Sequence record: MH494197.1 | Length of the DNA: 64,000 nt | DNA from: Escherichia phage CMSTMSU | Direction: 5' to 3' (one strand) | In this document: positions 3,149 through 62,986 of the stretch, one piece after another | How the letters are laid out: each line of letters begins with the position of its first letter | Position numbering within the stretch: position 1 is the first letter of the stretch | The notes under the pieces: model-generated | What the model was told of the DNA's origin: nothing | Database searches by the model: none | What the model saw: only the letters and a program-made list of their open reading frames with translations | Position numbers and translations under genes: made by a program

Positions 3149-3886
3149 TTAGAAATATACCATACCCATCAATTCTGAATCTTCAGGGCGAGTATAGCCT
3201 TGTTTCTTAACTTTAAAGTAGAAGGATTCATTGTCTTCTAAATTATAACGTTTCTTCAAGCAACGGGTATATGTCTGGCAATTAGGATGAACCCATTCAT
3301 ATATATGAACACCATCTTCATTATAACCATTTATACTACAACGGTTGCCTTCATGTTTCTTGTAGTTCTTGCTTTTCTCGGTAAATTCTTTTACAGCAGT
3401 AGTACTTGGTGATTTATATTCAAAAGGAACTTCAGTCATACGGAAATAATAATATTGATCGTCTTCATCATATCCCAAGAGCACTGTGTTAGTTTCACGT
3501 ACATTGTAATGATTCTTACTTTTCAATTCATTTTCATATATATCTTGAAGTACTTCTTCAAATACTGTAGTACTGTCAGCATTTGGGTTGGATACACCTG
3601 ATACTCTTCGTTCAATAATAAAATCAGTATATTTGCGGTCTTCTGCAATGTCTTCATTCATATAAAGACTAACGAACTTATCCTTGTACGTCTTTACACT
3701 GTATTGTTTACTTTGAACTTCGCTATATACATCTGCTAACATATTCTCCTGACCGCACTGCACACCACTTACAGAATAAGCACATGCATGTTCAGCCATT
3801 ACTGATGTTAACATTTGAAAATTTGCCATGTTTAATTCATTCGCCATCTCTGTAGCGAAACGGATACGGTCAAGCACTTTACACAC
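3149..3886 (-). CDS. hypothetical protein (245 aa)
   Basis: long uninterrupted minus-strand ORF; probable start at MANELNMANFQ...; no motif recognised. Confidence 0.5.
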   Translation of the reverse strand: MCKVLDRIRFATEMANELNMANFQMLTSVMAEHACAYSVSGVQCGQENMLADVYSEVQSKQYSVKTYKDKFVSLYMNEDIAEDRKYTDFIIERRVSGVSNPNADSTTVFEEVLQDIYENELKSKNHYNVRETNTVLLGYDEDDQYYYFRMTEVPFEYKSPSTTAVKEFTEKSKNYKKHEGNRCSINGYNEDGVHIYEWVHPNCQTYTRCLKKRYNLEDNESFYFKVKKQGYTRPEDSELMGMVYF

Positions 3887-3935: not shown

Positions 3936-4238
3936 CTATTGTCCCGCTTTGTAACAATAAAGATTCTCAAATTTAAAGTTTTCTATATCACATTCCGAAC
4001 GAACTCGATTCTTGTTCCAGAACAAAATGCGAATCCTTTCATAGTCACGATAAACATTAATAATACTTTTGTGTTTAGATTTGTAGTACTGCTGTATAAC
4101 CTGAAGAGTTATATCCCTCAACTTGGACTTAATTGGGTAAGACATATCATTACTAGTTGTTATGGTATAAACCATCTTCATCGTTTCAGCAACAAGTACT
4201 TCATTCGATTTATTTGCCATTAAAATCCTTACAAACAC
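3936..4238 (-). CDS. hypothetical protein
   Basis: track ORF 100 aa. Confidence 0.4.
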   Translation of the reverse strand: MFVRILMANKSNEVLVAETMKMVYTITTSNDMSYPIKSKLRDITLQVIQQYYKSKHKSIINVYRDYERIRILFWNKNRVRSECDIENFKFENLYCYKAGQ

Positions 4239-4663
4239 TATGTAAAGTAAATCCTAAACCTACACCTACGAATGGGAATAGTAAATTAATGTACCAGACA
4301 TTCATTGTCGAAAGGAAACAAATCCCACTTACTGTCAGTACTGCTAGTGAGAAAAGACTCCAGATAAAAATAATGCTCTCATAAAAATGTTACCTCGTTA
4401 GATGAGTAGTTACGATATATTTGTGAATTATGTTCCACACCATGAATTGTTATATGCCCGTTGTAGAAAAAAGTAATATCTACAACTTTGAGTTCTTTAC
4501 GTTTTTAGTACTGAAATATCTACCCACTAACGCAGCATATATATAATCCCTGTACTCTTGAGTAATGAATTTATACATATTATGATTTGCACTACACTTT
4601 TCATCATAAGTATTAGTATATTCTTTCATCAATAACGCATATGTTTTTGTATCAATATAATAT

Positions 4664-6807: not shown

Positions 6808-7341
6808 CTACATAACCATCTTCGTTACCAAATGCGATTGACATTTGTGCATCAGTACCGACATATGACCATGTACGCTTGCCAGTATTTTTCTCAATGA
6901 AGTTCTGAATTTCAAGAACGATTTCATGACGAGAACTATTGGCAATGTTGTTAAGGTTAGCAACACCAGCAATAATTTCTGAACTGTCATTGATTCTTCG
7001 AATGTGCCATAGTCACCTAATACATATTGAACACCATCACAATGTAATGCATATGCATAATCCAAATCAGCAAGTGAATCACACTTACCACGGATTGGGC
7101 GTAGGGAAAGCCCTAGGCGAAGATAACGAAAGTATGTATTAGTATTTGTATTTGTCAACGTAATGCTCCTTAACAATATAAAAGTAGTTGCTGTTGTTGT
7201 CAAAAAGATGACTAATCCTTTGTAGACATTTACACCAATCTTGATTTGGCATATTTTATTCGATTTACAAGCCTCAGTCAATAACATTTTGTGCTCTTTA
7301 CTGAAAGTGTGGAAGAGTGGTTTTACATGCCACATCTCCAC
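6808..7341 (-). CDS. hypothetical protein, frame probably disrupted
   Basis: track ORF 177 aa with low-complexity stretch; overlapping ORF 6632..6844 in another frame. Confidence 0.3.
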   Translation of the reverse strand: MEMWHVKPLFHTFSKEHKMLLTEACKSNKICQIKIGVNVYKGLVIFLTTTATTFILLRSITLTNTNTNTYFRYLRLGLSLRPIRGKCDSLADLDYAYALHCDGVQYVLGDYGTFEESMTVQKLLLVLLTLTTLPIVLVMKSFLKFRTSLRKILASVHGHMSVLMHKCQSHLVTKMVM

Positions 7342-7401
7342 ACCATCTAGTACTGGAAATGTTCACTGAATTTGATCATTGATTCTTGCAAAAATAACCT
7401 G

Positions 7402-7707
7402 TTAGATTCGAATCATCAGACATGTAAGTTCGCCGAAGTCAATTACTTCGTCATGTGTTAACTTATCACTACGCTCTAGAACATTGATGATGAATGGTGT
7501 TTGACTATATAATTCAGCCAGAAACGCAACTTCATCAGATGTATAAGAATATCCCATAGGAACAACTTGTGCAGTCCAGTTTCCTAAAGTTTTGTTTGCA
7601 ATGATTGCAACCACCGTATTACCTTTGAATTCAACATGGATTGAACGGAAACCCGAATCCTCATTCTGATCCCAAAGTACTGGGTTAGTTTTAAACAGTA
7701 CTGACAT
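7402..7707 (-). CDS. hypothetical protein
   Basis: track ORF 101 aa. Confidence 0.4.
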   Translation of the reverse strand: MSVLFKTNPVLWDQNEDSGFRSIHVEFKGNTVVAIIANKTLGNWTAQVVPMGYSYTSDEVAFLAELYSQTPFIINVLERSDKLTHDEVIDFGELTCLMIRI

Positions 7708-48877: not shown

Positions 48878-49081
48878 CTACATCAACAGAATATTCATTG
48901 TTGCCATCGTGGAAGTTTTCCAGTGCAATAGTATTGGATACCGCCCAACGTTTGCAGTTTCAATGATGCGGCACTGTTCCGGTTGGATAGTGCCATTACT
49001 TACAGCGTACTCCAGTGCATCTTTACCAAAAGTCCGAGCCAGTACTAAAACGTCAGCGAAGGAAGTGATTGAGAAGGTCAT
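48878..49081 (-). CDS. hypothetical small protein (67 aa), probably continues beyond a frameshift
   Basis: ATG MTFSITSF... with AAGGAG SD directly downstream of a promoter/stem-loop cassette; the track merges it with the upstream gene because no stop intervenes. Confidence 0.4.
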   Translation of the reverse strand: MTFSITSFADVLVLARTFGKDALEYAVSNGTIQPEQCRIIETANVGRYPILLHWKTSTMATMNILLM

Positions 49082-49099
49082 GATAAAACTCCTTAATTT

Positions 49100-49161
49100 A
49101 GGAGGGAGAACCATTTCCTCTCTATGTAAAACATTATACATGAATCTAAGTACTATGCAAG
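49100..49161 (-). promoter_or_regulatory. PeSL-like cassette (promoter plus 5' stem-loop)
   Basis: minus strand TTGCAT - 16 nt - TATAAT, then short hairpin, then SD/ATG. Confidence 0.5.
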
Positions 49162-49164
49162 TAC

Positions 49165-49498
49165 TTTTACATTTTAATACCGGATTCAGGTAGCGGTGAG
49201 ATCCATATTCTGGATCGGTTTCGGTCCAGTACTGTAAATCGATAGTACCTTTCGCGTTAATCTTGTCTACCAGCTTATTCATCTTAGCGTATACTACGTC
49301 AGCATCGATGCGTTTAAAGCCAGTAGCTTTAGTGAAGTAGTAGTGATTTGCTTCACTATCATTAAGGATATACCGAGCACCGTTTGCCGTTTGTGCGATA
49401 ATGATTGAGTATTCTACGTTACGGTCGAGGCCGTCGATGAATACAGAGGAAACATTAGTACGGATGAAAGCTTTAACGATAGCGATTGAAGTAGTCAT
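49165..49498 (-). CDS. hypothetical protein, 3' end unresolved
   Basis: MTTSIAIVKAFIRTN...; reading frame runs through the downstream cassette without a stop. Confidence 0.35.
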
Positions 49499-49587
49499 TT
49501 TGAATCTCCTAACTTTGTGGGCCGTCGCACCATTGCCGCCCTACGAGATACATTATTGCAGTACTGATATACTTTGTCAATACTTTT

Positions 49588-49725
49588 TATTAATAGTTTT
49601 AGTTCCACCAGCAGATAGTTACTCACCGTTATTAACTATATATTTTGGATACACCTATGCACCCTGTGGGCTAGTTTTTGTCTATGCGTATATATAGCAG
49701 GACTGACCGAGTCAATCCCTTTTTA
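49588..49725. repeat. ~130 bp repeated intergenic element, copy 1
   Basis: shares ATGCACCCTGTGGGCTAG ... TATATAGCA(A)GGACTGACCGAGTCAATCCCTTTTT with copies at 52.3, 55.6 and 60.1 kb. Confidence 0.6.
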
Positions 49726-49956
49726 TTCTTTTTGTTAGATGATTCTCCAATCATCAACGATCATGGTAAGATACCGAACCAGTGATTCGAGTGATTCGTG
49801 TTCTCGATAGTCTGCCGCTCCACCAGCGGTACAAGTACAGCCGATTAAGCCGTTTTGTAGTTCCGGATCTTTACGTCGATCTGGTTGGCTTTAGCTTCTT
49901 TCAGTACTTCAACCGGGCGAGAGCGATAGACATAATGTTTTACTCCAAACTATTGG

Positions 49957-50016
49957 CGGGAGAACTATTCCCCGCTCTATGTAAAACATTATACATTACT
50001 GGTTAGTACTGTCAAA
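49957..50016 (-). promoter_or_regulatory. PeSL-like cassette
   Basis: TTGACA - 16 nt - TATAAT on minus strand, hairpin GCGGG...CCCGC just downstream. Confidence 0.55.
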
Positions 50017-50022
50017 TAGTTT

Positions 50023-50280
50023 TTATGAAATATCTTCGATGTAGTCGGCCCATTTCATTTTTTCAGTACTGTCAATGGCTACCGGATTATTTGGATCAAA
50101 CCATTCACCATTACCGCAGTACATACCCACGGCTACGGTTTTATAGCCATCCCGGGCCGCACACCACGACATTGCACGATAGATATGGCCTTTAACTGGT
50201 TGCAGTACTGGTAACGTTTTATGGTCTTCTACGTAGGCCATAGCTTGTGGATTTACCCGATATTGTGTGAACTGTTCCAT
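50023..50280 (-). CDS. hypothetical protein (85 aa)
   Basis: track ORF; promoter-like sequence upstream. Confidence 0.45.
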   Translation of the reverse strand: MEQFTQYRVNPQAMAYVEDHKTLPVLQPVKGHIYRAMSWCAARDGYKTVAVGMYCGNGEWFDPNNPVAIDSTEKMKWADYIEDIS

Positions 50281-50593
50281 TATGTTTCCCCTTGTAGTTA
50301 GTAAAGTTATTACATCAGTACTATCAAGCTATGTCAATAGTACTGAAATAAAACTTTTAGATTAGATTATTGAGGCCGTCAATGGTAGACTCACTTTCTT
50401 CTTTCTCCCATTGTCGGTAGTACTTCCATGCTTCATGATAGGTGGCGATCAGTTCATCTTTTGATCCGGTTACATGCCAGTACTGAATCACGGTGAGCGG
50501 TGTTATAGATAGAATCGAATGATTTCTTCTCTTCTGCCGTTAGCTACTTCCCGCATCAGTTCATCAAAGTTAGCCATTTTATTACTCCTTTTA

Positions 50594-50650
50594 GTGGGGA
50601 GGATATCTCCCTATGCAAAACATTATACTTTGTTTTAGTTATTATGCAAG
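50594..50650 (-). promoter_or_regulatory. PeSL-like cassette
   Basis: TTGCAT - 15 nt - TATAAT; hairpin GGGAG GATAT CTCCC. Confidence 0.5.
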
Positions 50651-50902
50651 TACTTTTTCATATAAACATTAAATTCTACACCGCCGTAACCTTCCACGAT
50701 GATATGTTTTGCGTTATCACGTTTGCACATAGTGAAACCATCGTTTACGTGTTTTGCATTTTCGGGCGACATCACCGATAGCGGCACATACGGCACTAAT
50801 AACAGTATTCCGCAAAGTACTGGTATCATTGGCGGTCATAGTAGTTTGCAGTACTACGTTGTCGTATACGTGTGCATTGATAGTGATTTCGATAGTGTTC
50901 AT
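50635..50902 (-). CDS. hypothetical small protein, frame-shifted
   Basis: ORFs 50717..50902 and 50635..50829 overlap in two frames and look like one gene. Confidence 0.35.
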
Positions 50903-50916
50903 GGTGTATCTCGACT

Positions 50917-50978
50917 GGCGGGAGAACTATTCCCCGCTCTATGTAAAACATTATACGTTAATCTAACTACAATGCAAG
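50917..50978 (-). promoter_or_regulatory. PeSL-like cassette
   Basis: TTGCAT - 16 nt - TATAAT; hairpin GCGGGAGAACTATTCCCCGC. Confidence 0.55.
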
Positions 50979-51233
50979 TACTTTTAAATTTTATTTCCGA
51001 TATAGTCCGGTCTATTCTTTTCGGTCATACGCTTTGCTAATGTTTGCATATGGCTTATTGCTTGTAGTGTATCCTCTTCCGGGATGAATCGAGATAATCA
51101 GGATCATTCTTCACCTTGCAATGATTATGATAGCGTAGTACTGCCAGTACTTTTTAACTTCTTCTACTGTCATAATAAGTACCCACTTCGTTAGCTTTCA
51201 GGTTAGTATCAATCATCAGTGGATTTTTGTAGT

Positions 51234-51440
51234 TCACAAAACGAGTAGTTTTCTCGATAGCGAATCCCATATAATCCAGCTTACTAACAGTACATTCATT
51301 CTTAAAACTTCTTTCGCTGCATCGATGGCTGATTGCATGGATAACCGACCATCTAAATTAATGTTTCCAAATGATCCACCAGCAGAAGTAGGATTACCGT
51401 TCATATCTTTAATGATCATAGTAGCGGAGTAGCTGGACAT
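51234..51440 (-). CDS. hypothetical small protein
   Basis: track ORF 68 aa; AAGGA SD; cassette immediately upstream. Confidence 0.45.
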   Translation of the reverse strand: MSSYSATMIIKDMNGNPTSAGGSFGNINLDGRLSMQSAIDAAKEVLRMNVLLVSWIIWDSLSRKLLVL

Positions 51441-51463
51441 AATTTTGTTTCCTTTTATTGGTG

Positions 51464-51520
51464 TGGGAGAACTATTCTCCCTTGATGTAAACTATTATAC
51501 AGTACTGATATACTTTGTCA
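51464..51520 (-). promoter_or_regulatory. PeSL-like cassette
   Basis: TTGACA - 16 nt - TATAAT; perfect hairpin GGGAGA ACTAT TCTCCC. Confidence 0.6.
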
Positions 51521-51559
51521 AATACTTTTATTCGCCCATATAGATTAGATTATCATCGC

Positions 51560-51930
51560 CTACATAGGATCGCAAACGTTGATTTCTTCGCAGTACTTCG
51601 TGAATACATCGCCATAGTGACCTAAACCACGATCCCAAAACCAGTTCCGTGACCTTCGCGGGTAAGGAACAGATCATGACCAGCTTGCTCATAACCGTAA
51701 TCAATAAACATACCGCGAACTACTTCCAGATCATTACCGTGTTTCTCAATGAAGCGAGAACATGCAATCACTGCCGCTTGATGGGCTTGCTCTGATAATT
51801 CATAATCTTCCGTAATCGCCGTTCTCATTGTGTACAGTACTGAATTGCATAGCTTCAATGTAAGCTACAACCATTGCAGCATGATTTTTATCGTTAGTGA
51901 TGTTCCGAGCGAGATTAGTAGTAGTAGACA
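51560..51930 (-). CDS. hypothetical protein, frame-shifted
   Basis: ATG MSTTTNLARN...; continues in two other frames through ...REGHGTGFWDRGLGHYGDVF... Confidence 0.35.
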
Positions 51931-51951
51931 TGATTTTATTCCTTTTAGTAT

Positions 51952-52009
51952 CGGGGAGAACTATTCTCCCTTGATGTAAACTATTATACAGTACTAATAT
52001 ACTTTGTCA
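51952..52009 (-). promoter_or_regulatory. PeSL-like cassette
   Basis: TTGACA - 16 nt - TATAAT; hairpin GGGGAGAACTATTCTCCC. Confidence 0.6.
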
Positions 52010-52254
52010 ATACTTAATTACGTTTAAAATGATATGTGCCTTTATCATCCTGTACGCCCCATACTGATTTACCATCAACACCAGTGAAGCCGGATTGTAA
52101 TTCAATATGGAAACCATTATTATCAACTACAAAAACTTTTTATTTTCATCCCGATAACATTGATATTCTGAATCAACATTAAAGGCCGCATCATTCAGAA
52201 GATTAGAAGCGTAAATGCAAGTCATTGTAGTCATGATTTTATTCCTTATTGCCG

Positions 52255-52308
52255 TGGAACCGTTCCTCTCGATATAAAACATTATACTTGATTCTAAGTA
52301 TAATGCAA
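52255..52308 (-). promoter_or_regulatory. PeSL-like cassette
   Basis: TTGCAT - 16 nt - TATAAT; hairpin GGAAC C GTTCC, stem sequence differs from other copies but pairing is kept. Confidence 0.55.
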
Positions 52309-52311
52309 GTA

Positions 52312-52446
52312 CTTTTTAAAATAGTTTTCAGTACTGAATACTTATATAATAGATACACTTCCGCACCCTATGGGTCAGTGAGTTATCTCTCAATGGATAT
52401 ATATAGCAAAGGACTGACCGAGTCAATCCCTTTTTAATCTTTTTAT
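52312..52446. repeat. ~130 bp repeated intergenic element, copy 2
   Basis: CGCACCCTATGGGTCAGTGAG...GGACTGACCGAGTCAATCCCTTTTTAATC. Confidence 0.6.
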
Positions 52447-52507
52447 CGTGTTACCTTACTTGCTGCCACATCACGCTTTTTATAGTACTGATTCCAGATA
52501 TTGCTGG

Positions 52508-52825
52508 TTAAACCGTAATCAAGTACTTTAATAAGTCCATTACGATCCCGCCGATATTCTGTTTTCTGATATCTCTTATCGTTAGTGTTGATAATGTATC
52601 ATCGACGTGTTGTAGTGCATCAGCAAAGCGGTGCTGGCGTTCAATGGCATTACGTTTAATATTGTACTTTAATTCATTGCACGCGTTTACGTGCTTTACA
52701 CTGCCTTTACTTGCAGTACTCAACCGATCCATAACGATAAACATATTATCAGGATCGCATAAATGCATATGCACCTTTGCAAAGTACTGTTTCAACTGAG
52801 GGCGGTCATAGTCTAAAAATTCCAT
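52508..52825 (-). CDS. hypothetical protein (105 aa)
   Basis: track ORF. Confidence 0.45.
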   Translation of the reverse strand: MEFLDYDRPQLKQYFAKVHMHLCDPDNMFIVMDRLSTASKGSVKHVNACNELKYNIKRNAIERQHRFADALQHVDDTLSTLTIRDIRKQNIGGIVMDLLKYLITV

Positions 52826-52891
52826 ACCTTACATTCAGTTTCATTTTGTTCGACACCCGCATCACAATTCGCGACCTTAATCACTAACCGA

Positions 52892-53080
52892 TCATTTAAA
52901 GCGAAAACTATACGGGAAGATCCGCCCGATGATCTCCAGTCCAGCTAACCGACAAGCTGAAAGGATCTCTTTGTTGGTTTCCATTTCTGACAGTGTACGG
53001 ATGAATTTAGTATAATTACGCATTGCATGTTCTCCTTGAGTTAATGAAACTATATTACAGTACTTTACTATCAATGGCAA
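52892..53080 (-). CDS. hypothetical small protein
   Basis: track ORF 62 aa. Confidence 0.35.
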   Translation of the reverse strand: MPLIVKYCNIVSLTQGEHAMRNYTKFIRTLSEMETNKEILSACRLAGLEIIGRIFPYSFRFK

Positions 53081-53296
53081 CTACTTTTTAACATTAACGG
53101 CGTGAATCACTTCCTTAGTGTTTTTAGTACTGAATACTTTCGCCGCTCCTTGTTCGACCGTGATACGATAGCGACCATTAACATCAACCATATTAATAAA
53201 GTCCGGCGTGCTGAATGGTGTTGTTTTGCATTTGAGTACTGTTAACAGTTCCACCAGCGATGTAGTTTCTTTGATACGTTTTTCTAAAGTAATCAT
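53081..53296 (-). CDS. hypothetical small protein
   Basis: track ORF 71 aa; promoter-like repeat upstream, also found before the next gene. Confidence 0.4.
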   Translation of the reverse strand: MITLEKRIKETTSLVELLTVLKCKTTPFSTPDFINMVDVNGRYRITVEQGAAKVFSTKNTKEVIHAVNVKK

Positions 53297-53434
53297 TTTG
53301 TTTCTCCCCGTGTTGGTATGTACATATAGTACTAAAACATTTGAGTACTGTCAATTAGATAATATTATATTTCTTAAAATAAAATGCGTCTTGTGTTGGT
53401 TGATACTCGATACCGTTACCGTTATTGACTTCAA

Positions 53435-53629
53435 CTAATAAACCTTTGTCAATAAGTTTTTAATAGTACGATACCCTTGTTGAAAATTGGTAAAATGTGA
53501 ATCATTACGAAAGGTATAACCGTGCTTAACTGCTTCATCAATAGTTTTCTTTTCGATTTTAGATAATTTCATTTTGTTTCTCCCGTGTTGGTATATGTAC
53601 ATAGTACTAAAACATTTGAGTACTGTCAA
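53435..53629 (-). CDS. hypothetical small protein
   Basis: track ORF; likely start at internal MKLSKIEKK with GGGAGA SD. Confidence 0.4.
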   Translation of the reverse strand: MTVLKCFSTMYIYQHGRNKMKLSKIEKKTIDEAVKHGYTFRNDSHFTNFQQGYRTIKNLLTKVY

Positions 53630-53890
53630 CGTGATATTAGTTTTATTTTCTTATTGTATTGTTGATGCTCATAAAGGTTTATCTTTCCTGTGTTCTCGAT
53701 TACTATCCTGTTGTTAGTGTCCACATCGATTACACGCAGTTTCCGTTGCTTAACTTCCGGGTAATAGGTTACCATTAATAAACTCATTAGCAAGCTGTAC
53801 GGCCTTTGTGATGATTCTCTTCGGTGCTTTATAGTGTACCCGTAAGATGTTATCTTTATATAGTTGAACCTTAATCATTTTGTTTGTCCT

Positions 53891-53916
53891 ATAAAAAGGC
53901 GGGAACTGATCCCGCC
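53891..53916 (-). terminator. rho-independent terminator (minus strand)
   Basis: stem GGCGGGA/TCCCGCC, loop ACTGA, followed by U-run in minus transcript. Confidence 0.6.
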
Positions 53917-54423
53917 GTGTTGTTAGTACTGCAAGTTATTAGATAACCGGCGGCGTTTACTGTATACTGTTACACGATTACCCTTACGGTCGTGTCGGAT
54001 CTCTTTCTGGTTGCGAATCAGTTCACTTGGACGCTTAAGGTTTGCCGTGATCCGCGTGAGTCCATGCATTGGCATTTACCTGTACTTTGATATCAGAACC
54101 AGCGATAAACTCATCTTGTGCGTCAGTATTGCCGCCAGCATATCCGCTCGTTTTAGTTCTGCTGCTGTTAGTACTGGCTCAGGTGAATTCACAATATCAG
54201 AGATCTTTGAACTGTACGGCCCAGCGTTGGCCTTTCGGTGCATCTTTGCCCATGTCTTTAAATGCTGCTCCTTCCTCGCGTGCAACAATACGGGCAGCTT
54301 CACGGGTAGCGTAGAATTTAGTAATCATGGTATACATCCTATTAGTTAAGTTAGTACTACAAGTTAGAGTCTATTATAAAGTACTATCTGGGCAATGTCA
54401 AATAGTACTTTAAATGGATTCTA

Positions 54424-54745
54424 TTACATGTCTTTCTTACGTTTTACATCGTGGTAGCGAACTGTTATTTCTTTGTTGATCTCTTCCTCGATGCGGTGAA
54501 TAACTTTTTCTTTCGGGTTGAAACCTATAACGGTTTCTTTAATGATCTCAAGCCCGTGTATTCGCCTTGTGTACCGTAACCGTATGTAAAGGTTTCGTGT
54601 CCCGTGTCTTCCAGCGGTCGCCAATTAACGCAGACACGTAGCAAGAGTGGTAAGTATTGCCGTGTGAATCAGTCCACCGATTAACGTTAATGTCAAAGGA
54701 GGTTACAATTTTCAATTCTACTTTCTGGGCAAGGATCATAGCCAT
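54424..54745 (-). CDS. hypothetical protein, frame-shifted
   Basis: MAMILAQKVELKIV...NVNRWTDSHGNTYHSCYVS; two overlapping track ORFs. Confidence 0.4.
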
Positions 54746-54764
54746 TTTATTTCTCTCTTTTAGT

Positions 54765-54825
54765 TAGGAGGAACCATTCCCTCACTTGATGTAAACTATT
54801 ATACAGTACTAAGATACTTTGTCAA
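54765..54825 (-). promoter_or_regulatory. PeSL-like cassette
   Basis: TTGACA - 16 nt - TATAAT; hairpin in 5' leader. Confidence 0.55.
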
Positions 54826-54843
54826 TACTTATTTTTGGAAAGT

Positions 54844-55008
54844 TTACGCATTAATTCTACGCTTTCTTGTGAACGTTTTGCTACCGGCAAGCTGCATGGG
54901 TAGTAAACATTTTGTATAGTCTGACGCTTTGCCACCGAACCGAGCGGCACGTTCACGGGCACTTGGAACTAATACTATTTCTTTCTTGCAGATAGTGCAC
55001 TTAGCCAT
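54844..55008 (-). CDS. small Cys-containing protein (54 aa)
   Basis: MAKCTICKKEIVLVPSARERAARFGGKASDY...; own cassette upstream. Confidence 0.4.
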   Translation of the reverse strand: MAKCTICKKEIVLVPSARERAARFGGKASDYTKCLLPMQLAGSKTFTRKRRINA

Positions 55009-55027
55009 TTTATTTCTCTCTCTTTGT

Positions 55028-55089
55028 TAGAGGGGAACCGTTTCCTCACTCGATGTAAACTATTATACAGTACTAAGATACTTTGTCAA
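55028..55089 (-). promoter_or_regulatory. PeSL-like cassette
   Basis: TTGACA - 16 nt - TATAAT; hairpin GGAA ACGG TTCC. Confidence 0.55.
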
Positions 55090-55093
55090 TACT

Positions 55094-55366
55094 TAATTAT
55101 TGTAAATGTCGTGAATAGTGATAAAGTTTTTACGACCGTAAACCTGCAAATCAATATCAATGTAGTGCTTATCTAGTACATCCTCGACGCTTAACGCGGT
55201 GTCGTGGATATCTTCGTAGAATTGAGTATCTACAATCTTGCTTAAGTCATCCGGCGTTAACTCATCGTTAAGCAGTTGAACCGCCGGATATCTGCTTCAC
55301 GTTTCCAGTCTTCCAGTTAGTAGTCAGTACTTGTTCGATTTCGTTAGCTGTCAGTAGAATCCGCAT
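55094..55366 (-). CDS. hypothetical protein, frame-shifted
   Basis: MRILLTANEIEQVL... then ...LLNDELTPDDLSKIVDTQFYEDIHD... in another frame. Confidence 0.35.
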
Positions 55367-55547
55367 TTTTATGTTTCCTTATCAGTGGTTGATGTAAGTA
55401 TTATACTCGTTTACTTTCTATTGTCAAACTATTTTATCAGGGAGTTTTTCGTATGTCTTACTCGACTACTTAACGGGGTTACTTGTTTCGTTCCCCGTCC
55501 TGATGTAAAACATTATACTTGATTCTAAGTACAATGCAAGTACTTTT

Positions 55548-55670
55548 TAAAAATAGTTTTCAGTACTAGCCACCAGCAAACAATAGATACATTTATGCAC
55601 CCTGTGGGCTGATTTGTTTCTATGCGTATATAATAGCAAAGGACTGAATCCCTTATTCAATTATTTTTAA
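55548..55670. repeat. ~130 bp repeated intergenic element, copy 3
   Basis: ATGCACCCTGTGGGCTGA...TATAATAGCAAAGGACTGAATCCC. Confidence 0.55.
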
Positions 55671-55816
55671 ACTTCTTTCGGGTTGCGATAGGTGATAGCG
55701 TTCGGGTACATTTGTTTAATGTTATTCCATGCCCGGTTGACATTGTAACCACTTGATCGAATCAGTTGGTTACTACCGACACCTTGAAACACTACTTCGA
55801 ATAAGAATTCTTTCAT
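55668..55816 (-). CDS. small hypothetical protein (49 aa)
   Basis: MKEFLFEVVFQGVGSNQLIRSSGYNVNRAW... Confidence 0.3.
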
Positions 55817-56286
55817 GCTTTCACCTCGCGATCTGCTTTACCTTTACGCCGACATTACTAATTGTTCGCGTTGCCATAAGTCGAGTGATACAAAAGTTTT
55901 GCGGTATCACTTTTAGGATACTCGCCATTAGTACCTAACCGATAAAACAGATCTTTCAGTACTGATAATTCTACTTGGATCATTATACTTTCTCTTTGTT
56001 GGGAGGGAACTATTCTTCCGATATAAAACATTATACACTTTATTCAGTACAAGTACTTTTAATCTTTCAGCCAATGATCCTGAATGAATTTTTCACCGGA
56101 ACCTTGCTGCATTGATTGTAACAGACGTTCACGATGAGCGGCGGCGAATTGCTCAGTACTATGCGTTACACCGGTTGATATCTGGATTCACCATTGGGGC
56201 TGATGTATTGTACATCCCACGGTTTTTCGTTAGTATCAGACCATTTACGAACGATTAGTTGACCTTGCATTTTTCTTTCTCTTAGT

Positions 56287-56346
56287 GGGGAGAATCATTT
56301 CTCCCCTTCATGTAACTTATTATACAGTACTAGATTATCTTGTCAA
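56287..56346 (-). promoter_or_regulatory. PeSL-like cassette
   Basis: TTGACA - 16 nt - TATAAT; perfect 8 bp hairpin GGGGAGAA TCAT TTCTCCCC. Confidence 0.6.
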
Positions 56347-56351
56347 TAGTT

Positions 56352-56636
56352 TTATTCACCTTGTTTGAATTTAGTTTTCTCCATTGATTCCATGATTGCA
56401 ACCAATACGCCGTGGATCTCGCTTAACGCGGAATCACTAAAAGCATTAATGAATAGTCGATCATTCTCGCGAATATTTTTAATGTACTTTTCAGCAGTAG
56501 TTGCGAATTCATTCAACGGTAGATCAAATGCTTTATCCCATGATGGATGGCGTAATTGTAACAGTACTGGATTATCACGATCACGGGAAAACGTACCAGT
56601 GATGAAACATACGCCCGAATACTTTCGAACTGGCAA
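56352..56636 (-). CDS. hypothetical protein (94 aa)
   Basis: track ORF. Confidence 0.45.
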   Translation of the reverse strand: MPVRKYSGVCFITGTFSRDRDNPVLLQLRHPSWDKAFDLPLNEFATTAEKYIKNIRENDRLFINAFSDSALSEIHGVLVAIMESMEKTKFKQGE

Positions 56637-56959
56637 CGGACTTCCTTTGTGATAGTAGTATGAATGTACATTTATTGTTATCCTCTATTAAATTAATATT
56701 ACAGTTTATGAATCAATTCTTTATCTAAGCGATAGCGTACATTATTAATAGTAACGGCATTGTTTTAATGCTACGCTGTACAGGTCCACCAGCAATAACA
56801 AATGTTGCTTTATTACCCCGAACAATGATAGCACTTCCGTGATTACCGAAATCATCTTGTACTAAAATACTTGATAAGTTTTCCATTTTATTTCTCTTAG
56901 TAGGGAAGATGTTTCCTTGATGTAAGTACTATAACAGTACTGAAAACTAATTGCAAGTA

Positions 56960-57313
56960 CTATGATAAAATCATGATAGGATATTCACTATCGATCAGTA
57001 CCTCGAATCCGAACCCTTCGTACCATTCTTTAAGATTAAAGGCGTTATCTTCTCCGTATCGCATTCTAAGATGATACAATCTGAATCATCAGCGGCATCG
57101 ATAAAGGCATTCATTAATTCGTTACCTTCACCATTGCCCCGACTATCAGGATCAACATAAAGAGAATCAATGAAAGCAACACGGTCATAATCAAGATCCG
57201 GTGCAATGATTCCACGTTTAACAAACCAGTACTGCAATTGTGCTACTTTGCTGTACCTGATAACCAGTGATCTCGCCATTGTCAGTAGTACGCGTGATAT
57301 GTTGTATTCCCAT
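56960..57313 (-). CDS. GNAT-family N-acetyltransferase-like small protein, frame-shifted twice
   Basis: acetyl-CoA-binding motif ...VDPDSRGNGEGNELMNAFIDAA... and C-terminal ...EWYEGFGFEVL... readable across three frames. Confidence 0.5.
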
Positions 57314-57962
57314 GATTTCTATCCTCAGTTAAGATATAAAACATTATACACTATCTTTCAGTACTGTCAATTACTTTTATCTCATAGATCTATGCCAACA
57401 ATTACGCGGATCTCTTTAAAAGTACTATCATGATCCTCCGGCAAGTAATACAATACATGCACCTATAACGGCCCGGCGTCGATTCTCAGGGATTTTACCG
57501 CCGCAGTCGAGGCAATGTACAGTGATTCTCTTTGTGCGTTAATTTGCTTTCTAGCGTGGTTAACGGCGGCCTGAATCACTGCGTTAATCTCGTCTTGTTC
57601 GGCCCCGTCTTTCGCGAATCCTACAGCCATTATTTTAACCTCATTATAAAAATACTATAGTACTGTAATGCTACAATAATACTACTAGTGCTAATCTTAT
57701 TCAAACCACATGATACTACATATCCACCAGCATTACCACGGATAGTAACGCCTTTGTACTGTCTATATAAATTCAACTGCGTATATTGCCTTTGATCAAG
57801 AATTGATCAGAATTATACGCCTTATGCTAAATTGATCCAGTACTTTTGATCATTTATTGATCGATGTTATATAGTTACATTTGTGCACCCTATGGGTTAG
57901 TGACGTTCTCGTCTTGATGTAAGTATTATGCCAGTACTGGAGGATATTGTCAATAGATTATT

Positions 57963-58160
57963 TTAATTTTTTCTATCATTAATTAATGCTTTCAGTACTA
58001 TACTAATAACTTGCAATGATTCATCAATGACAATGAAATTATTCTCTTTCATTAGATGATAGTTACCATTGATTGTATATTCTAACGAGTACTGTTTACG
58101 TTTAATTTTTGATAATGTTTCTATTTGTTTTTGTACTGATTTCATGCTAATCATTGTCAA
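57963..58160 (-). CDS. hypothetical small protein
   Basis: track ORF 65 aa. Confidence 0.35.
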   Translation of the reverse strand: MTMISMKSVQKQIETLSKIKRKQYSLEYTINGNYHLMKENNFIVIDESLQVISIVLKALINDRKN

Positions 58161-58983
58161 ACGTCCTGTAACGCATTCTAACGAGATAAACGGTTGAGTA
58201 CTGGCATTGTATAGGGTAATGATTAAAGCCCACCAGCGTTAACCAGTGGGCTATAATCTTACATCTTGCGGATAATCTTAACAGTATCTTTCACCGATTT
58301 ACCGTTTTGCTGACATTGCTCGATCATCGCGTATTGTTCTGCGGTCAGATCCTCGCCAGTTTTTGCCAGTACTGCGTCGATGAATGAATCCAGTGCGATC
58401 ATTTTGTTTCTCTCTTAGGTTAAGTTAACTACTGTTTATAAAACTTATTATACAGTACTATCAAACTATGTCAATAGTACTGGTAATATATTTTAGCGGT
58501 AGTCGTCGTATGCTTTATTCACGGCGAATATAACTTTCAAAGGCTTCGTCTACCGTTTCATACTCCCGAACATAATCACCATATGAAACTACATACATAC
58601 CTTTTGATCTTCAAACGTCATGATGATAGAATCCAGACCAACGATTTCAGTTTTTGCGATGATAGCCATTTTTAATTCCTTAGTAGTGTAGTTGATAAAA
58701 GTTATTATGTCAGTACTATCAAACTATGTCAATAGTACTGTGATAATATTTTAGTTAATGATAGTCAGTGTAAAATTGTAATCCCCTGCCCGTATAGTAC
58801 TTTATCGCCGAACGTTCCAACACGTTTCATATTGCAATAGATACCCATAACACTTTTACATCTTTGATATTCCGAACGCCAGTAATATCCTTGTTTAAAT
58901 GATCGTGATCAGAAAATAAAACTTGTTTTGCATTTTTCAGTACAGTGCAGATATTAGCCATTTTGTTTTCTCTTCTGTTAGTG

Positions 58984-59041
58984 GGGAGAAGTTTTTCTCC
59001 CTTGATGTAAACTATTATACAGTACTATAATCTATTGTCAA
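58984..59041 (-). promoter_or_regulatory. PeSL-like cassette
   Basis: TTGACA - 16 nt - TATAAT; hairpin GGGAGA AGTTTT TCTCCC. Confidence 0.6.
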
Positions 59042-59414
59042 ACTATTTTTTATATTATTCGAAATCTTCTGGACCGGACTGATAATCATCTTCACCGTAT
59101 GCACTTTCTAACCGCTCGCCAGTGCAATCATCAGTTAGTGAGTCATCCTCATAGTTCACGTCTACGCCAGTGATGTAAAACTGGCTATCGTCTGGATCAT
59201 TGAAATTAATTTTCTGGATGTTTACAATAACTGTATTGATGCCGTGACACCGCCATCAGCCGTTACAAAGTACTGATATTTTTCACAACCGCCTGAATTG
59301 AAACCGTAATTAATTTCGGCCCGACCATCACTTAAACGCAGTGTCTGAGCGATGATTTCATTTTCAAAGTTAGATTGAGCAATTGCAATAGTCATGATTT
59401 GTTTCTTATTATCA

Positions 59415-59471
59415 GGGAAACCGTTTCCCTTTCGATGTAAAACATTATACGCTTATCAGGAAGTAATGCAA
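59415..59471 (-). promoter_or_regulatory. PeSL-like cassette
   Basis: TTGCAT - 16 nt - TATAAT; hairpin GGGAAA CCG TTTCCC. Confidence 0.55.
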
Positions 59472-59957
59472 GTACTATTTCACGTTAATTTCAAAGTACT
59501 GCTCTTTGATGTTTTCCTGTTGGTAAATCTCGTTTAATGCTTTAAGATCTAAAACCTGTTTACCTGCTGCCTGAATATACTTTTAAGAGTCGCTAACAGC
59601 TTCTCAGGCGTGTTTGTAGTCTTACGTGTTGGGATCTTATCGTGCCCCATAGCGTAGTACTGCTTACGTGCTATAGTACTGATAACACTGCGGTACGGTT
59701 CCATGATCAGCTTGTCTGTATTCGTCGCTATCCCCAAACTTCATACCGTGGATCGCAAAGGTCATCATCATGCGGTCGTTATCGCGGATATTGTGGGGCA
59801 GTCGGCAAGCTCGCGAGTCAGTGACATAGTGATCCCCACGTCGCCACCCAGCGGTAAAGGTCGGGCGATAAAGAAACCGTTAGGGAATACTTTCAGGAAG
59901 TTTTCTTGAACTGCTGCGACGAATTCGATGCTATTCATAATTCATTTCCTTAATTAG

Positions 59958-60015
59958 TGGGGAAGTTGTTTCCTCTTGATGTAAAACATTATACGCCTAT
60001 TGAGATAGTTTGCAA
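59958..60015 (-). promoter_or_regulatory. PeSL-like cassette
   Basis: TTGCAA - 16 nt - TATAAT; hairpin GGAA GTTGT TTCC. Confidence 0.5.
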
Positions 60016-60032
60016 GTACTTTCTACAAATAC

Positions 60033-60160
60033 TTTTAAAATAGTTTTCAGTACTCAATACTCATATAATAGATACACTTATGCACCCTGTGGGCTAGTGA
60101 GCTATCTCTCAATGAATATATAATAGCAAAATGGCTGACCGAGTCAACCACTTTTTCATT
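60033..60160. repeat. ~130 bp repeated intergenic element, copy 4
   Basis: ATGCACCCTGTGGGCTAGTGAGCTATCTCTCAATGAATATATAATAGCAAAATGGCTGACCGAGTCAACC. Confidence 0.6.
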
Positions 60161-60271
60161 TATTTTAGCTTTTAGAATCGCCGCCTTTCGCGTCATGCCT
60201 TGCTTGATGTATTCTGTACTTTCGCTTTACGTGCATTCGCTTTATTTGCTTTCGTAAACGCCGAACAACTT

Positions 60272-60580
60272 TTATAGTTTAAACCTGTTGGATTCATTTA
60301 AATCACCATAAAGAATAGATAGGTTACTAACAACGCCGCGATCAATGCACCGACCGAACTGTAATAAGCTAATGATCTCATTTTTAGCCTGAAAATAATG
60401 TTTAATTTGAGCGGCGGTCAGTGCACAATTACGCAGGAAGTTTTCTGTATAACTTTTGCGAGTACTGAAAGAGAATTGACCTTTGCTGCTGCCGATAGTA
60501 ACATCAAACCGAGCGTTGTATTGTTTCATTTTGTTTCTCCTGTTATTGGGGAGAATCATTTCTCCCTTCATGTAAAACAT
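60272..60580 (-). CDS. hypothetical protein
   Basis: track ORF 102 aa; probable start at internal MKQYNARFDV. Confidence 0.4.
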   Translation of the reverse strand: MFYMKGEMILPNNRRNKMKQYNARFDVTIGSSKGQFSFSTRKSYTENFLRNCALTAAQIKHYFQAKNEIISLLQFGRCIDRGVVSNLSILYGDLNESNRFKL

Positions 60581-60605
60581 TATACAGTACTAAAACTAAT
60601 TGCAA
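60548..60605 (-). promoter_or_regulatory. PeSL-like cassette
   Basis: TTGCAA - 15 nt - TATAAT; hairpin GGGGAGAATCATTTCTCCC, identical to copy at 60771. Confidence 0.55.
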
Positions 60606-60770
60606 GTACTATTTTTAGATTTACGCAAACTTTCTACCATCTCAGGAGTAAGGTCTGCGGGTAGGAAACTACTTCATCAACGAAACGTAAAGGAATACCC
60701 CAGCGAAAGGTGAACGTGCTTTCTTAGTATTACTCTTTTTGATGCTTTCATTTCATATTCTTAATTAGTG

Positions 60771-60827
60771 GGGAGAATCATTTCTCCCTTCATGTAAAAC
60801 ATTATACGCGTTTAAAACTAATTGCAA
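60771..60827 (-). promoter_or_regulatory. PeSL-like cassette
   Basis: TTGCAA - 15 nt - TATAAT; hairpin GGGGAGAATCATTTCTCCC. Confidence 0.55.
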
Positions 60828-61691
60828 GTACTATTTGAAAGTAAATGCTCATACGCTACATTAACTACGTTTTCAATAACCGACTGTACAGAAAGATCCC
60901 CACTTCCGGCTATAGTAGAAATCGCTTACAGTAGTGTCATCGTATGCAAATACTTTACCGTGACTGCATCAATCACATACATATTAACCTTTAAGATGTC
61001 GATCTTATCCTGTACAGTAAGCATATTAATTAACCTTTTAAGTACTGACTTAAGTAATCTTGTTGATCTTCGGTGATTGCAGCCATCTTCCCTAGTACTG
61101 GATTAATGATATAATCCCTGTAACGTCCTGTAACGCATTCTCAGGCGGTTTAACGGCTGGGGTAGCCATAGCCATTGCCGACTTGTTCGACGCTGTAACG
61201 CTCATAAAGGCGGCATTCTTCCGGTGTTAACATAGCATCAATGCGTTTCATTGGTTTAATGATGCTTTCGATCTCATTCAGTACTTGATTAACGTTCATG
61301 GTATAATCCCAATATAAGCGGCCTAAATCGACCGCTAACGATGTTTTGATTAATAGGTGTATGGTTGACGTTCAAACAATGATTGCACGTTGTACGCCCC
61401 GCTTATGGGCTTTGCTGGTAAATCAATTTTATATTGTTCACGCTTAAAGATAATAAAACGGCAATTGTTTTAACATCAAAATTGATTGAACGTTCCGAGT
61501 TTACCATCGTGCACAAATACAAGATAACCGCTCGCTACTTGTTTTGTAGTACTGGTTGCAACCATAGACCGCCGAACATGTGTACCTGCGTCGATTAAAG
61601 TACTGATATTTTTCATTTTACTATCCTCTTAAGTTGATTTAATTTCTTTCCCTATGCAGACACTGTACCAAAGTATCTGCATAAAGTAAAG

Positions 61692-62013
61692 CTAATTAAA
61701 GATCTTTTTACGTTTTACATCCTGTACAGTACAATGCAACGGGATAGACAAATCATTGCACAAACGATAGAGGGAGGTTTCATCAGTATTAAGCCCGTCT
61801 ACTGATTCCTTTAAGAGAGATAACGCCGTTTGTTGGTATGCATCTTCATAGCCATAAGTAAATGATTCAACCGCCAGATCATTCAAGCCGTTATCCAGTT
61901 CGACGCTTACATGACAAGAATGATGTATTGCCATATGAATCAGACCAACGTTTACCGTCAACATTGATTGCACGGATTGCAGCCGAAACGGTGTTAATGA
62001 TAGTTTTAGCCAT
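61692..62013 (-). CDS. hypothetical protein, frame-shifted; paralog of 54424..54745
   Basis: MAKTIINTVSAAIRAINVDGKRWSDSYGN then ...HHSCHVSVELDNG...; shares RW-x-DS-x-GN-x-YHSC-x-VS with 54424..54745. Confidence 0.4.
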
Positions 62014-62263
62014 TTTAGTATTCCTTAAATTAATATGTGTCGTCTTGATAAAATCTATTATGCCAGTACTATCAAACTATGTCAATAGTACTGTGATAAT
62101 ATTTTTACTTACTTTTTGCTTTCTTTATTGCTTCCACCGGTCGGCCCATTCTTTACCCCATACTTGTAAATTATAATGGTACTGGCAAAGTGCAACGCCC
62201 CGCTTTAAACCAGTAATAGATTTTTACCACATTGACAAGTTTTCATTTTAGTTTCCTTGTAGT

Positions 62264-62321
62264 GGGAGAACCATTTTCCCCTTGATGTAATGTATTATAC
62301 TTTATTCGATTTACTTTGCAA
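62264..62321 (-). promoter_or_regulatory. PeSL-like cassette
   Basis: TTGCAA - 16 nt - TATAAT; hairpin GGGAGAACCATTTTCCC. Confidence 0.5.
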
Positions 62322-62338
62322 GTACTTTTTAATTTAAT

Positions 62339-62551
62339 TCATCCGTAAAGGATACGCTCAACGCCCAAATCAGTTAAACTAATCGACGGCACTTGATAGG
62401 TTTCAATGTATGCTACACTTGCCCACTGACCGAACTCATTAACGGCCGTATTCATTGCATTTTGCAATTCCACACCTTCCTTGTTGGTAATGACTGCAAC
62501 TACTTGTTCGTTGCCAGTAGTACCAGATACGCGAGTAATGATAATAGCCAT
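62339..62551 (-). CDS. hypothetical small protein
   Basis: track ORF 70 aa. Confidence 0.4.
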   Translation of the reverse strand: MAIIITRVSGTTGNEQVVAVITNKEGVELQNAMNTAVNEFGQWASVAYIETYQVPSISLTDLGVERILYG

Positions 62552-62986
62552 TTTTTAATTCCTATTCAGTAGTTGATGTATGTATTATGCCAGTACTTAA
62601 AACTATTGTCAAACTATTTTTAAAGTTTATCAATGATTGATGCCGTTTCATTGATAGTCTTGCCGTGTTTTGCACACGCGATAACTGCTTTAAATTCCTT
62701 TGATGACCAATCTTTCTTACTGCATACTGACATTACTTGTAAAGTAAAACAATCCAGTTCATAAGTATTCATCTTTATATCCTCAGTTAGTTAAGGTGTC
62801 TGCCTTGATGTAATTAATTATACGCTAATCTCTTAATCGTGCAAGTACTTTTATTACTTTTTGCAAAATACTTTAAACGCTCTCAATCGCATTACAACGA
62901 CCTTAACGCCACCAGCTAGGCAATGCATCAGATAATCAGTTTAAAGCGTTAGAATCGTTTCTAGGCGGTGCTGGTGGCGTAAACGA

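Follow-up and report, generated by a model that had tools for sequence, protein, structure and literature searches.

A repeated terminator/promoter cassette with a conserved structured core in the early region of an Asteriusvirus genome: a candidate family of phage small RNAs

A stretch of 64,000 nucleotides (nt) from Escherichia phage CMSTMSU (sequence record MH494197.1), which we refer to as the window, contains five copies of an intergenic cassette. We predict, with moderate confidence, that this cassette represents a family of early small RNAs of phages that has apparently not been described before; its terminator/promoter chassis resembles the PeSLs (promoter-early stem-loops) of other phages. 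The repeat and its strand, the hairpins and their covariation, a promoter consensus at a fixed distance, conservation across genera and free-standing, terminated relatives are established. The core is interpreted as a small RNA gene with its own promoter because the copies share this promoter at a fixed distance and because terminated copies exist in related phages.

Cassette organization in the window

The window corresponds to the early region, within the terminal repeat, of an Asteriusvirus (a 121Q/G17-like jumbo coliphage). Positions 49000-61000 align over their full length with Escherichia phage WPEC3 (751-12923; 95.7% identity) and are also matched by G17, 121Q, PBECO4, phAPEC6 and other Asteriusvirus jumbo phages. 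The counterpart of this stretch in vB_Ec-M-J is found within the annotated direct terminal repeat (1-21525). The records of G17 and WPEC3 begin ~750 bp ahead of the point that matches window position 49000, and the boundary of the terminal repeat is therefore placed at window position ~48250. All genes in this region are small and encoded on the minus strand, each with a near-consensus sigma-70 promoter. For the related phage CBB, an early region with an "RpoD-like promoter" has been described (PMC5259590), and the gene layout of the window fits this type.

A preliminary description of the window, made from the sequence alone, had listed four copies of the repeat and a partial one. The four copies were confirmed with an nhmmer profile of the copies, which locates them on the minus strand at 49613-49734 (c1), 52313-52444 (c2), 55545-55679 (c3) and 60032-60165 (c5), with E-values from 1e-30 to 1e-34. 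Read on the plus strand, the earlier coordinates and consensus hold. What had been called a "partial" copy (57866-57905; c4) is in fact a complete RNA body behind a different promoter (57.3 bits with the covariance model); only its terminator hairpin is absent. It corresponds to a fifth, shorter nhmmer match (57860-57929, minus strand, E 2e-9). No further match better than E=2 was obtained in the whole 64-kb window. The core GCACCCTRTGGG occurs five times compared to 0.10 expected, and none of 100 shuffles reached this count. With the covariance model, five RNA bodies and no more are detected, each on the minus strand (49645-49686, 52349-52395, 55583-55624, 57871-57917 and 60068-60114).

The copies had been placed between the stop of one gene and the promoter cassette of the next. 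This agrees with the annotation of G17, where the homologous units reside in the gaps 1254-1501, 4027-4249 and 7202-7518 of the record. The order of the copies is conserved; the distances between them are not the same in the window, G17 and 121Q. On the minus strand, a unit consists of an A-run, a hairpin (GGGAUUGAC-UCG-GUCAGUCC), UUUGCUAUUAUAUAU and the RNA. The RNA begins with CAU and continues with a first hairpin (P1), a linker (CUA or CUG), a second hairpin (P2, RCCC-AYA-GGGU), a tail (GC-N5-UGUAUCUAU), an AU-rich stretch and AGUACUGAAAACUAUUUU(U). Each unit is followed on its 3' side by the UP element and the promoter of the next gene.

The hairpin at the upstream end is read as an intrinsic terminator of the preceding minus-strand gene, as judged from its stability on the minus strand, the UUUGCUAUUAU stretch that follows it and the G17 annotation. 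It had been described as imperfect and as lying on the wrong strand for a terminator, neither of which is supported. The plus-strand mismatch is a G.U pair on the minus strand, so that the hairpin is perfect there. Folding energies are far lower on the minus strand (-13.2 and -14.8 kcal/mol in the window; -19.5 in G17, z -6.1) than on the plus strand (about -6 in the window; -13.4 in G17). In G17, the hairpin is located 15-19 nt past the stop codon and is annotated as a minus-strand ARNold terminator. ARNold terminators are also annotated on the homologous hairpins of GAP32. The outer stem pairs vary between copies yet stay complementary (GGGA/UCCC, GUGG/CCAU). The UUUGCUAUUAU stretch is U-rich but interrupted, and a simple terminator scan passes only c5. 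The hairpin looks bidirectional because it is flanked by an A-run and a T-run. It is lost in c3 and was never present in c4.

Embedded in this hairpin is a predicted host-type sigma-70 promoter (TTGACT-17-TATTAT). This promoter had not been noticed previously, nor had the covarying core hairpins and the Chi sequence in two copies. In most copies, the TTGAC of the -35 forms the 5' arm of the terminator hairpin located upstream, and TATTAT lies 17 bp further on. Among 57 distinct copies, 51 have TTGAC(A/T), a spacer of 16-18 nt (mostly 17 bp) and one of TATTAT, TATAAT, CATAAT or TATACT. The distance from the promoter to CAU is fixed, both in copies with a terminator hairpin across the -35 and in those without one. 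A promoter scan of the window detects c4 (11/12) and c5 (10/12).

Structure and covariation of the RNA body

The conserved RNA has a length of ~50 nt. P1 is its 5' terminal hairpin, with a variable stem and an A-rich loop of 6-7 nt. A 3-nt linker (usually CUA), P2 and the tail follow, usually with AGUACUG, in most cases 8-16 nt past the tail. A structure and covariation analysis of the copies had been proposed in the preliminary description, and P1 does covary strongly. In a covariance-model alignment of 56 distinct sequences, for which the model was built from seeds of equal geometry, double-sided changes occur at all four P1 pairs. The covariation score of P1 is 0.381, compared to 0.143 +/- 0.012 in shuffled alignments (reached by 0 of 500), and controls with slid partners give at most 0.057. 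The top four column pairs by mutual information are the P1 pairs. An alignment of this kind is fitted to the model and favours structure; the raw listing of sequences agrees with it, and the P1 covariation was reproduced on an independent set of 27 new metagenomic copies. MAFFT combined with RNAalifold on untrimmed copies missed P1 because the lengths of stem and loop vary. At least 16 different P1 stems were seen, among them UGAG/CUCA, AGAC/GUCU, ACCAC/GUGGU, AGCA/UGCU, UGGC/GCCG, GACG/CGUC, GCCG/CGGC, ACAAA/UUUGU and UAG/CUA.

P2 (RCCC/GGGU around a three-base loop, mostly AYA) is essentially invariant, with 99% of the alignment cells paired. One of its base pairs is G.U in 31 and A-U in 23 of the 56 sequences, and two CG-to-UA double changes were found. 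P2 is read as RNA of the minus strand because the alternation of G.U and A-U pairs only on that strand.

A second helix, GGGUGCR/UGUAUCU, would exclude P2. It is paired in 89-91% of the cells, and pairing is preserved by almost every change at the five outer pairs; one pair changes from C-G to G-C or G.U in five sequences. Its covariation score equals that of the shuffle control, which is uninformative in this case because the 5' strand of the helix is invariant. A two-state fold is thus suggestive only. Two further pairings were considered and rejected. Pairing of the P1 loop with the tail as a pseudoknot fits some copies but is contradicted in others, and it is absent from the mutual-information signal. 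A long-range helix between the linker and AGUACUG works in some copies (CUG with CAG), is contradicted in others and likewise has no mutual-information signal.

The preliminary description had attributed no plausible protein to the repeat, and we concur. The G17 gaps carry only short open reading frames (ORFs) that differ between copies, and the length of P1 varies by non-multiples of 3. A coding sequence hidden by indels had been named as the case that would overturn this view; in the cleaner G17 assembly, no ORF is common to the copies. Behind a start-like NUG triplet of the tail, stop codons come at varying positions or are missing altogether up to the terminator, and a coding role was therefore rejected. 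A conserved, covarying structure is thus combined with the lack of a common ORF, as is typical for a small RNA gene. In K64-1 (NC_027399) and several Asteriusvirus records, "hypothetical proteins" of 20-30 amino acids are annotated over the elements on both strands (e.g., gp448 and gp449 of K64-1). These are probably over-predictions.

Searches against known RNAs gave no match. In the whole window, there is no tRNA or tmRNA, and Rfam 15 yields nothing at gathering thresholds; for the elements (49-61 kb), it yields nothing even at E<=5. An origin from a host small RNA was rejected, as blastn found no match in 5,426 E. coli genomes. A literature search retrieved no description of the motif, nor of small RNAs in this phage group. 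The conserved RNA has no described counterpart, and the family is apparently undescribed.

Distribution in relatives and weighing of the interpretations

When one 141-nt copy was used as a blastn query, 302 places in 68 phage records were matched, including Klebsiella phages RaK2 and K64-1, Pectobacterium phage CBB, Cronobacter phage GAP32, Salmonella phage Munch, Serratia phage BF, and Erwinia and Aeromonas phages. About 83 distinct copies come from RaK2-like jumbo phages of Escherichia, Klebsiella, Cronobacter, Pectobacterium, Serratia and Erwinia and from metagenomic jumbo contigs. When a 2-kb piece of the window was compared by blastn, only the element and the adjacent promoter aligned outside Asteriusvirus. 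Within Asteriusvirus, the copy number is constant, with four places per record (eight if both terminal repeats are recorded) in syntenic order. These observations bear on a possible miniature mobile (MITE-like) element, for which presence or absence would vary at orthologous sites. Several P1 types are common to different genera (UGGC-AGAUAA-GCCG, AGCA-AGAACAA-UGCU and the short CAUAGACAAAAACUAG form), and the copies are therefore considered old paralogs rather than products of recent copying.

Three arrangements are found. All five copies of the window are in tandem with the genes. Other copies are free-standing, antisense, and share a bidirectional terminator. The third arrangement is that of convergent pairs, of which at least 11 were seen, none of them within the window, with 3' ends 17-38 nt apart (in the relatives' records L013, 1228-1355; L010, 6038-6154; L009, 12510-12620; L011, 284-413 and 3287-3398; and in L020, L022, L028, L029 and L030). 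Each transcript of such a pair would enter the antisense of its partner, which could result in a long hairpin or in double-stranded RNA. K64-1 has about nine copies. Two of these run counter to the genes and form complete transcription units, in which TTGACA-17-TATAAT is followed by the conserved body and a strong GC hairpin with a T-run. A strict test, which requires a GC hairpin and a T-run at ~+40 past the tail, is passed by 11 of 57 copies, and a few more have weaker T-runs. The passing copies are from K64-1, RaK2, BF, CBB and metagenomic relatives, and several terminator-bearing copies are antisense to neighbouring genes.

We propose the following scheme for the favoured small-RNA interpretation. 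The GC-rich hairpin and the U-rich stretch would end the upstream early gene. The 5' arm and loop of this hairpin would also supply the -35 (TTGACT) of a strong host sigma-70 promoter, with the -10 (TATTAT) 17 bp later. From this embedded promoter, a conserved RNA of ~50 nt would be made, starting at CAU. It would be a member of a multi-paralog family, produced by the host RNA polymerase right after infection. We infer that the RNA is actually made. P1 may act as a 5' protective hairpin, as also on early mRNAs of this phage, and the invariant P2 and tail may form a recognition module for a trans-acting partner, either a protein or an RNA. As the copies in this phage are devoid of a strong terminator of their own, the RNA would end at the weak AGUACUGAAAACUAUUUUU signal or would be cut from a longer transcript that enters the next gene.

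Enterobacterial and phage small RNAs that act in trans and have intrinsic terminators include multi-copy families. The free-standing copies resemble these in that they combine a sigma-70 promoter of their own with 5' hairpins, a single-stranded stretch that is conserved, and a GC hairpin ending in a U-tail; their total length is ~90-110 nt, and several paralogs occur per genome. They differ in the convergent gene pairs and in the promoter that is nested in a terminator; also, no target, seed pairing or chaperone site was identified, no Rfam family matches, and the window copies are without a terminator. For the jumbo phage PA5oct, which is related to the 121Q/RaK2 group, two non-coding RNAs (ncRNA001 and ncRNA002) from the direct terminal repeat make up 1-5% of phage reads at each infection stage (PMC7318152, Lood et al. 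2020). The cassette RNA shares with these its non-coding nature and its location in the terminal repeat of a related phage. The PA5oct RNAs are longer (236-451 nt), show no sequence similarity to it, and were not reported to have structure or to form a repeat family. Homology to ncRNA001 was rejected, since the CCCAYAGGGUG core is absent from it. They may be the closest analogue of the cassette RNA and are analogues at best.

Several observations weigh against the small-RNA interpretation. None of the five window copies passes the strict terminator test after the RNA. The -10 is TATATA in c1 and c2, and c3 is without a -35. P2 and the tail are almost invariant and thus provide little covariation, so that a reading at the DNA level is possible. 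Fold z-scores of the whole RNA are unremarkable for the window copies (-1.1 to +0.2); those of terminated K64-1 and metagenomic copies are lower (-1.7 to -2.9), mostly due to the terminator. The 5' and 3' ends of the RNA are predictions. Sites complementary to the tail are not in excess in the window (10 compared to 8.7 expected), and a role of the tail as a seed against phage mRNAs was rejected on this basis. No partner or target was identified.

The five window copies are also co-directional with the next gene, with no strong terminator in between, so that a leader role is possible in this phage. The cassette would then be a cis-acting second promoter, and the RNA would be a 5' leader which stabilises the message, controls its translation or renders RNA polymerase termination-resistant in the manner of put or nut. 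P1 is indeed placed like the 5' hairpin of ordinary early mRNAs, which begin with ACAUCAAG followed by a hairpin. The cis-acting antiterminator RNAs of lambda (nut boxB) and HK022 (put) are small promoter-proximal hairpins with purine-rich loops. The P1 loops are purine-rich and somewhat GNRA-like, and we take them to be reminiscent of boxB. This likeness is one of general layout, and read-through fits poorly with the many copies that run straight into a terminator or face another copy. The 11 of 57 copies that are terminated ~40 nt past the tail, several of them antisense to flanking genes, and the at least 11 pairs that face each other have no downstream gene to act on, which argues against a purely cis-acting leader. 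In addition, the downstream genes differ from copy to copy, and each has a full promoter of its own. We thus consider a leader function unlikely.

A further interpretation dispenses with a functional RNA altogether. PeSLs of T4-like phages consist of a stem-loop terminator and a strong early sigma-70 promoter (PMC2839356, Arbiol et al. 2010; PMC4122927, Comeau et al. 2014), and a composite of this type, repeated among small orphan early genes, is also what is found here. The resemblance extends to the small size of the composite, the near-consensus promoters, the many repeats in plastic regions and the style of the stem-loop (A-run, G-run, loop, C-run, T-run). The repeat might thus be kept merely by shuffling, as a regulatory or recombination cassette in which the transcribed core is a passenger or serves as recombination homology, with the Chi sites in c1 and c3 adding to this. 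The region is, moreover, rich in related promoter cassettes. Differences exist, however. Here the terminator stem itself contains the -35, which is adjacent to the stem in PeSLs. The carriers are RaK2-like jumbo phages and not Tequatroviruses, and downstream of the promoter comes a structured non-coding RNA, which is the best-conserved part across genera. Recombination homology leaves the compensatory changes of P1 and the invariance of P2 unexplained. Only this stretch is conserved across genera, with flanks beyond blastn detection, and copy number and order are stable among Asteriusvirus genomes. A pure PeSL-type cassette is improbable in our view.

We give the least credence to a DNA-level site. 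This could be a palindromic CCC-AYA-GGG operator, bound by a phage or host protein, just past a strong promoter. It could also belong to a replication origin primed by transcription, like T4 oriF and oriG, in which a promoter and a G-rich transcript are combined with an AT-rich stretch for unwinding. P2 is near-invariant and symmetric, and the two double changes (CCU/AGG) keep the DNA symmetry; AT-rich sequence lies past the tail, and the copies are located in the terminal repeat. The G.U pair in 31 of the 56 sequences, however, breaks DNA symmetry and still pairs as RNA. Covariation of P1 requires a single-stranded nucleic acid, conservation of the tail is asymmetric, and the free-standing units of promoter, RNA and terminator resemble genes. 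Among the roles that the preliminary description had offered, a small RNA is thus the best candidate, and a recombination hotspot is possible in view of the PeSL likeness and Chi in two copies. No evidence was found for a replication or packaging signal.

A wider proposal is decidedly more tentative than the small-RNA interpretation itself. RaK2-like jumbo phages may each possess 5-12 early small RNAs of a family that is old and has diversified. These would share an invariant P2 and tail module, able to switch between two folds that exclude each other (P2, or GGGUGCR paired with UGUAUCU), and have paralog-specific 5' hairpins. Made by the host polymerase from the terminal repeat in the first minutes of infection, they might work in trans on a host factor (e.g., an RNA-binding protein, a nuclease or a defence system), either as its decoys or as its regulators, with convergent pairs giving double-stranded RNA. 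If true, this would be a new class of phage host-takeover RNA. Little is known about host takeover by RaK2-like jumbo phages (121Q, PBECO4, K64-1, GAP32, CBB), the early regions of which are annotated nearly exclusively with hypothetical proteins. With multiple copies, strong host-type promoters and selection at the RNA level, the cassette is a concrete and cheap experimental target. Its compact design, in which one hairpin serves as a terminator and also supplies the -35 of the following promoter, bears on the evolution of PeSL-like cassettes and on genome annotation.

Individual copies and other features of the region

All units are on the minus strand. The c1 unit (49552..49719) starts with the terminator hairpin (49719-49700), which encloses the -35 TTGACT (49715-49710). 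A degenerate -10 (TATATA, 49696-49691) precedes the RNA body (49686-49645), which has the short P1 form UAG/CUA. An AU-rich hairpin and a Chi sequence (GCTGGTGG, 49612-49605) follow, and the next gene has its -35 at 49580-49575, its -10 at 49557-49552 and its ATG start at 49498. In c2 (52281..52430), the terminator hairpin (52430-52411) encloses TTGACT (52426-52421), and the -10 (52405-52400) is TATATA in the window but TATTAT in G17 and 121Q. Its RNA body (52395-52349) has P1 UGAG-AGAUAA-CUCA, P2 ACCC-AUA-GGGU and the tail GCGGAAGUGUAUCUAU. AGUACUG (52335-52330) and a T-run (52321-52318) follow, and the next gene has the promoter AAGTACTTGCA with TATAAT at 52286-52281. The c5 unit (59988..60154) has the terminator hairpin 60154-60128 (12 pairs), enclosing TTGACT (60147-60142), a TATTAT at 60125-60120 and the RNA body 60114-60068 with P1 UGAG-AGAUAG-CUCA and P2 GCCC-ACA-GGGU. 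AGUACUG (60054-60049), a T-run (60040-60037) and the next -10 (59993-59988) follow.

Only a remnant of the terminator/-35 hairpin exists in c3 (55512..55665). Compared to G17, the inner 9 nt (GACTCCGGT) of the hairpin (window 55640-55665) are gone, and with them the stem and TTGACT; they may truly have been deleted, or their absence may stem from the assembly. The -10 (TATTAT, 55635-55630), the RNA body (55624-55583, short P1), Chi (55577-55570), AGUACUG (55567-55562), a T-run (55553-55549) and the next -10 (55517-55512) are in place. The c4 unit (57812..57953), which is without a terminator hairpin, has a free-standing promoter, consisting of TTGACA (57953-57948), a 17-nt spacer and CATAAT (57930-57925) with TG before the -10. 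Its RNA body (57917-57871) has P1 GACG-AGAA-CGUC and is followed by a small hairpin (GAUCA/UGAUC), AGUACUG (57844-57839), a cluster of five GATCAA and the next -10 (57817-57812).

Between positions 49000 and 55995, the window lacks bases present in G17 at 74 positions and has extra bases at only 4. Of the gaps, 56 are single-base, and 45 of those are inside homopolymers. This imbalance indicates that the assembly under-calls homopolymers, to which shortened hairpins and fragmented ORFs in the window are attributed. The TATATA in place of TATTAT in c1 and c2 and the loss of the -35 in c3 may thus represent assembly errors or real decay.

Chi occurs 12 times in the window compared to 0.44 expected. 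Nine sites lie in the early region of the terminal repeat, on the minus strand, which is the gene-sense strand there (49605, 49820, 51376, 53251, 55570, 56786, 57724, 58230 and 62909, within 49605-62916); the remaining ones are at 1475 (-), 9485 (+) and 62970 (+). An exact Chi lies just 3' of the RNA body only in c1 and c3 and is absent from c2, c4 and c5, and Chi sites are also scattered through genes. Chi is thus a regional feature that overlaps the element and does not define it. The sites are oriented such that they are read by RecBCD entering at the ~48250 boundary, which is the left genome end in G17/WPEC3 coordinates. The bias towards the gene-sense strand recurs in G17 (5/0), 121Q (5/0) and K64-1 (9/1). 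The oriented cluster may protect injected linear DNA from RecBCD. In relatives, several of the small RNA promoters carry Chi within the spacer.

The palindrome AGTACT is found 240 times in the whole window (~21 expected) and 97 times in 48-64 kb (5 expected). It is absent from 32-40 kb and 44-48 kb, and every other 6-bp palindrome is at most 3-fold over-represented. It occurs in AAGTACTTGCA at promoter -35s, in CAGTACTG(G/T)(C/T)ATAAT in promoter spacers, and inside genes. In most of the 57 RNA copies, it lies 19-43 nt past GGGUG. In GAP32, CBB, BF and metagenomic relatives, it is part of TACTGTACATAAAAACAGTA, which we take to resemble a LexA box.

The five GATCAA/TGATCAA repeats (Dam sites) 3' of c4 are clustered within ~80 nt on the minus strand around the next promoter (window ~57785-57865). 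The same cluster is present in 121Q (record L003, about 3730-3800), and it could be a regulatory or methylation-sensitive site. Finally, the promoter cassette and gene beside c2 (window 51443-52020) have blastn matches of 77-84% in phages of ~145 kb that are not RaK2-like (muut, W70, ECGD1, PHB05, ALITA and others), so that early cassettes or genes may be common to different phage groups.

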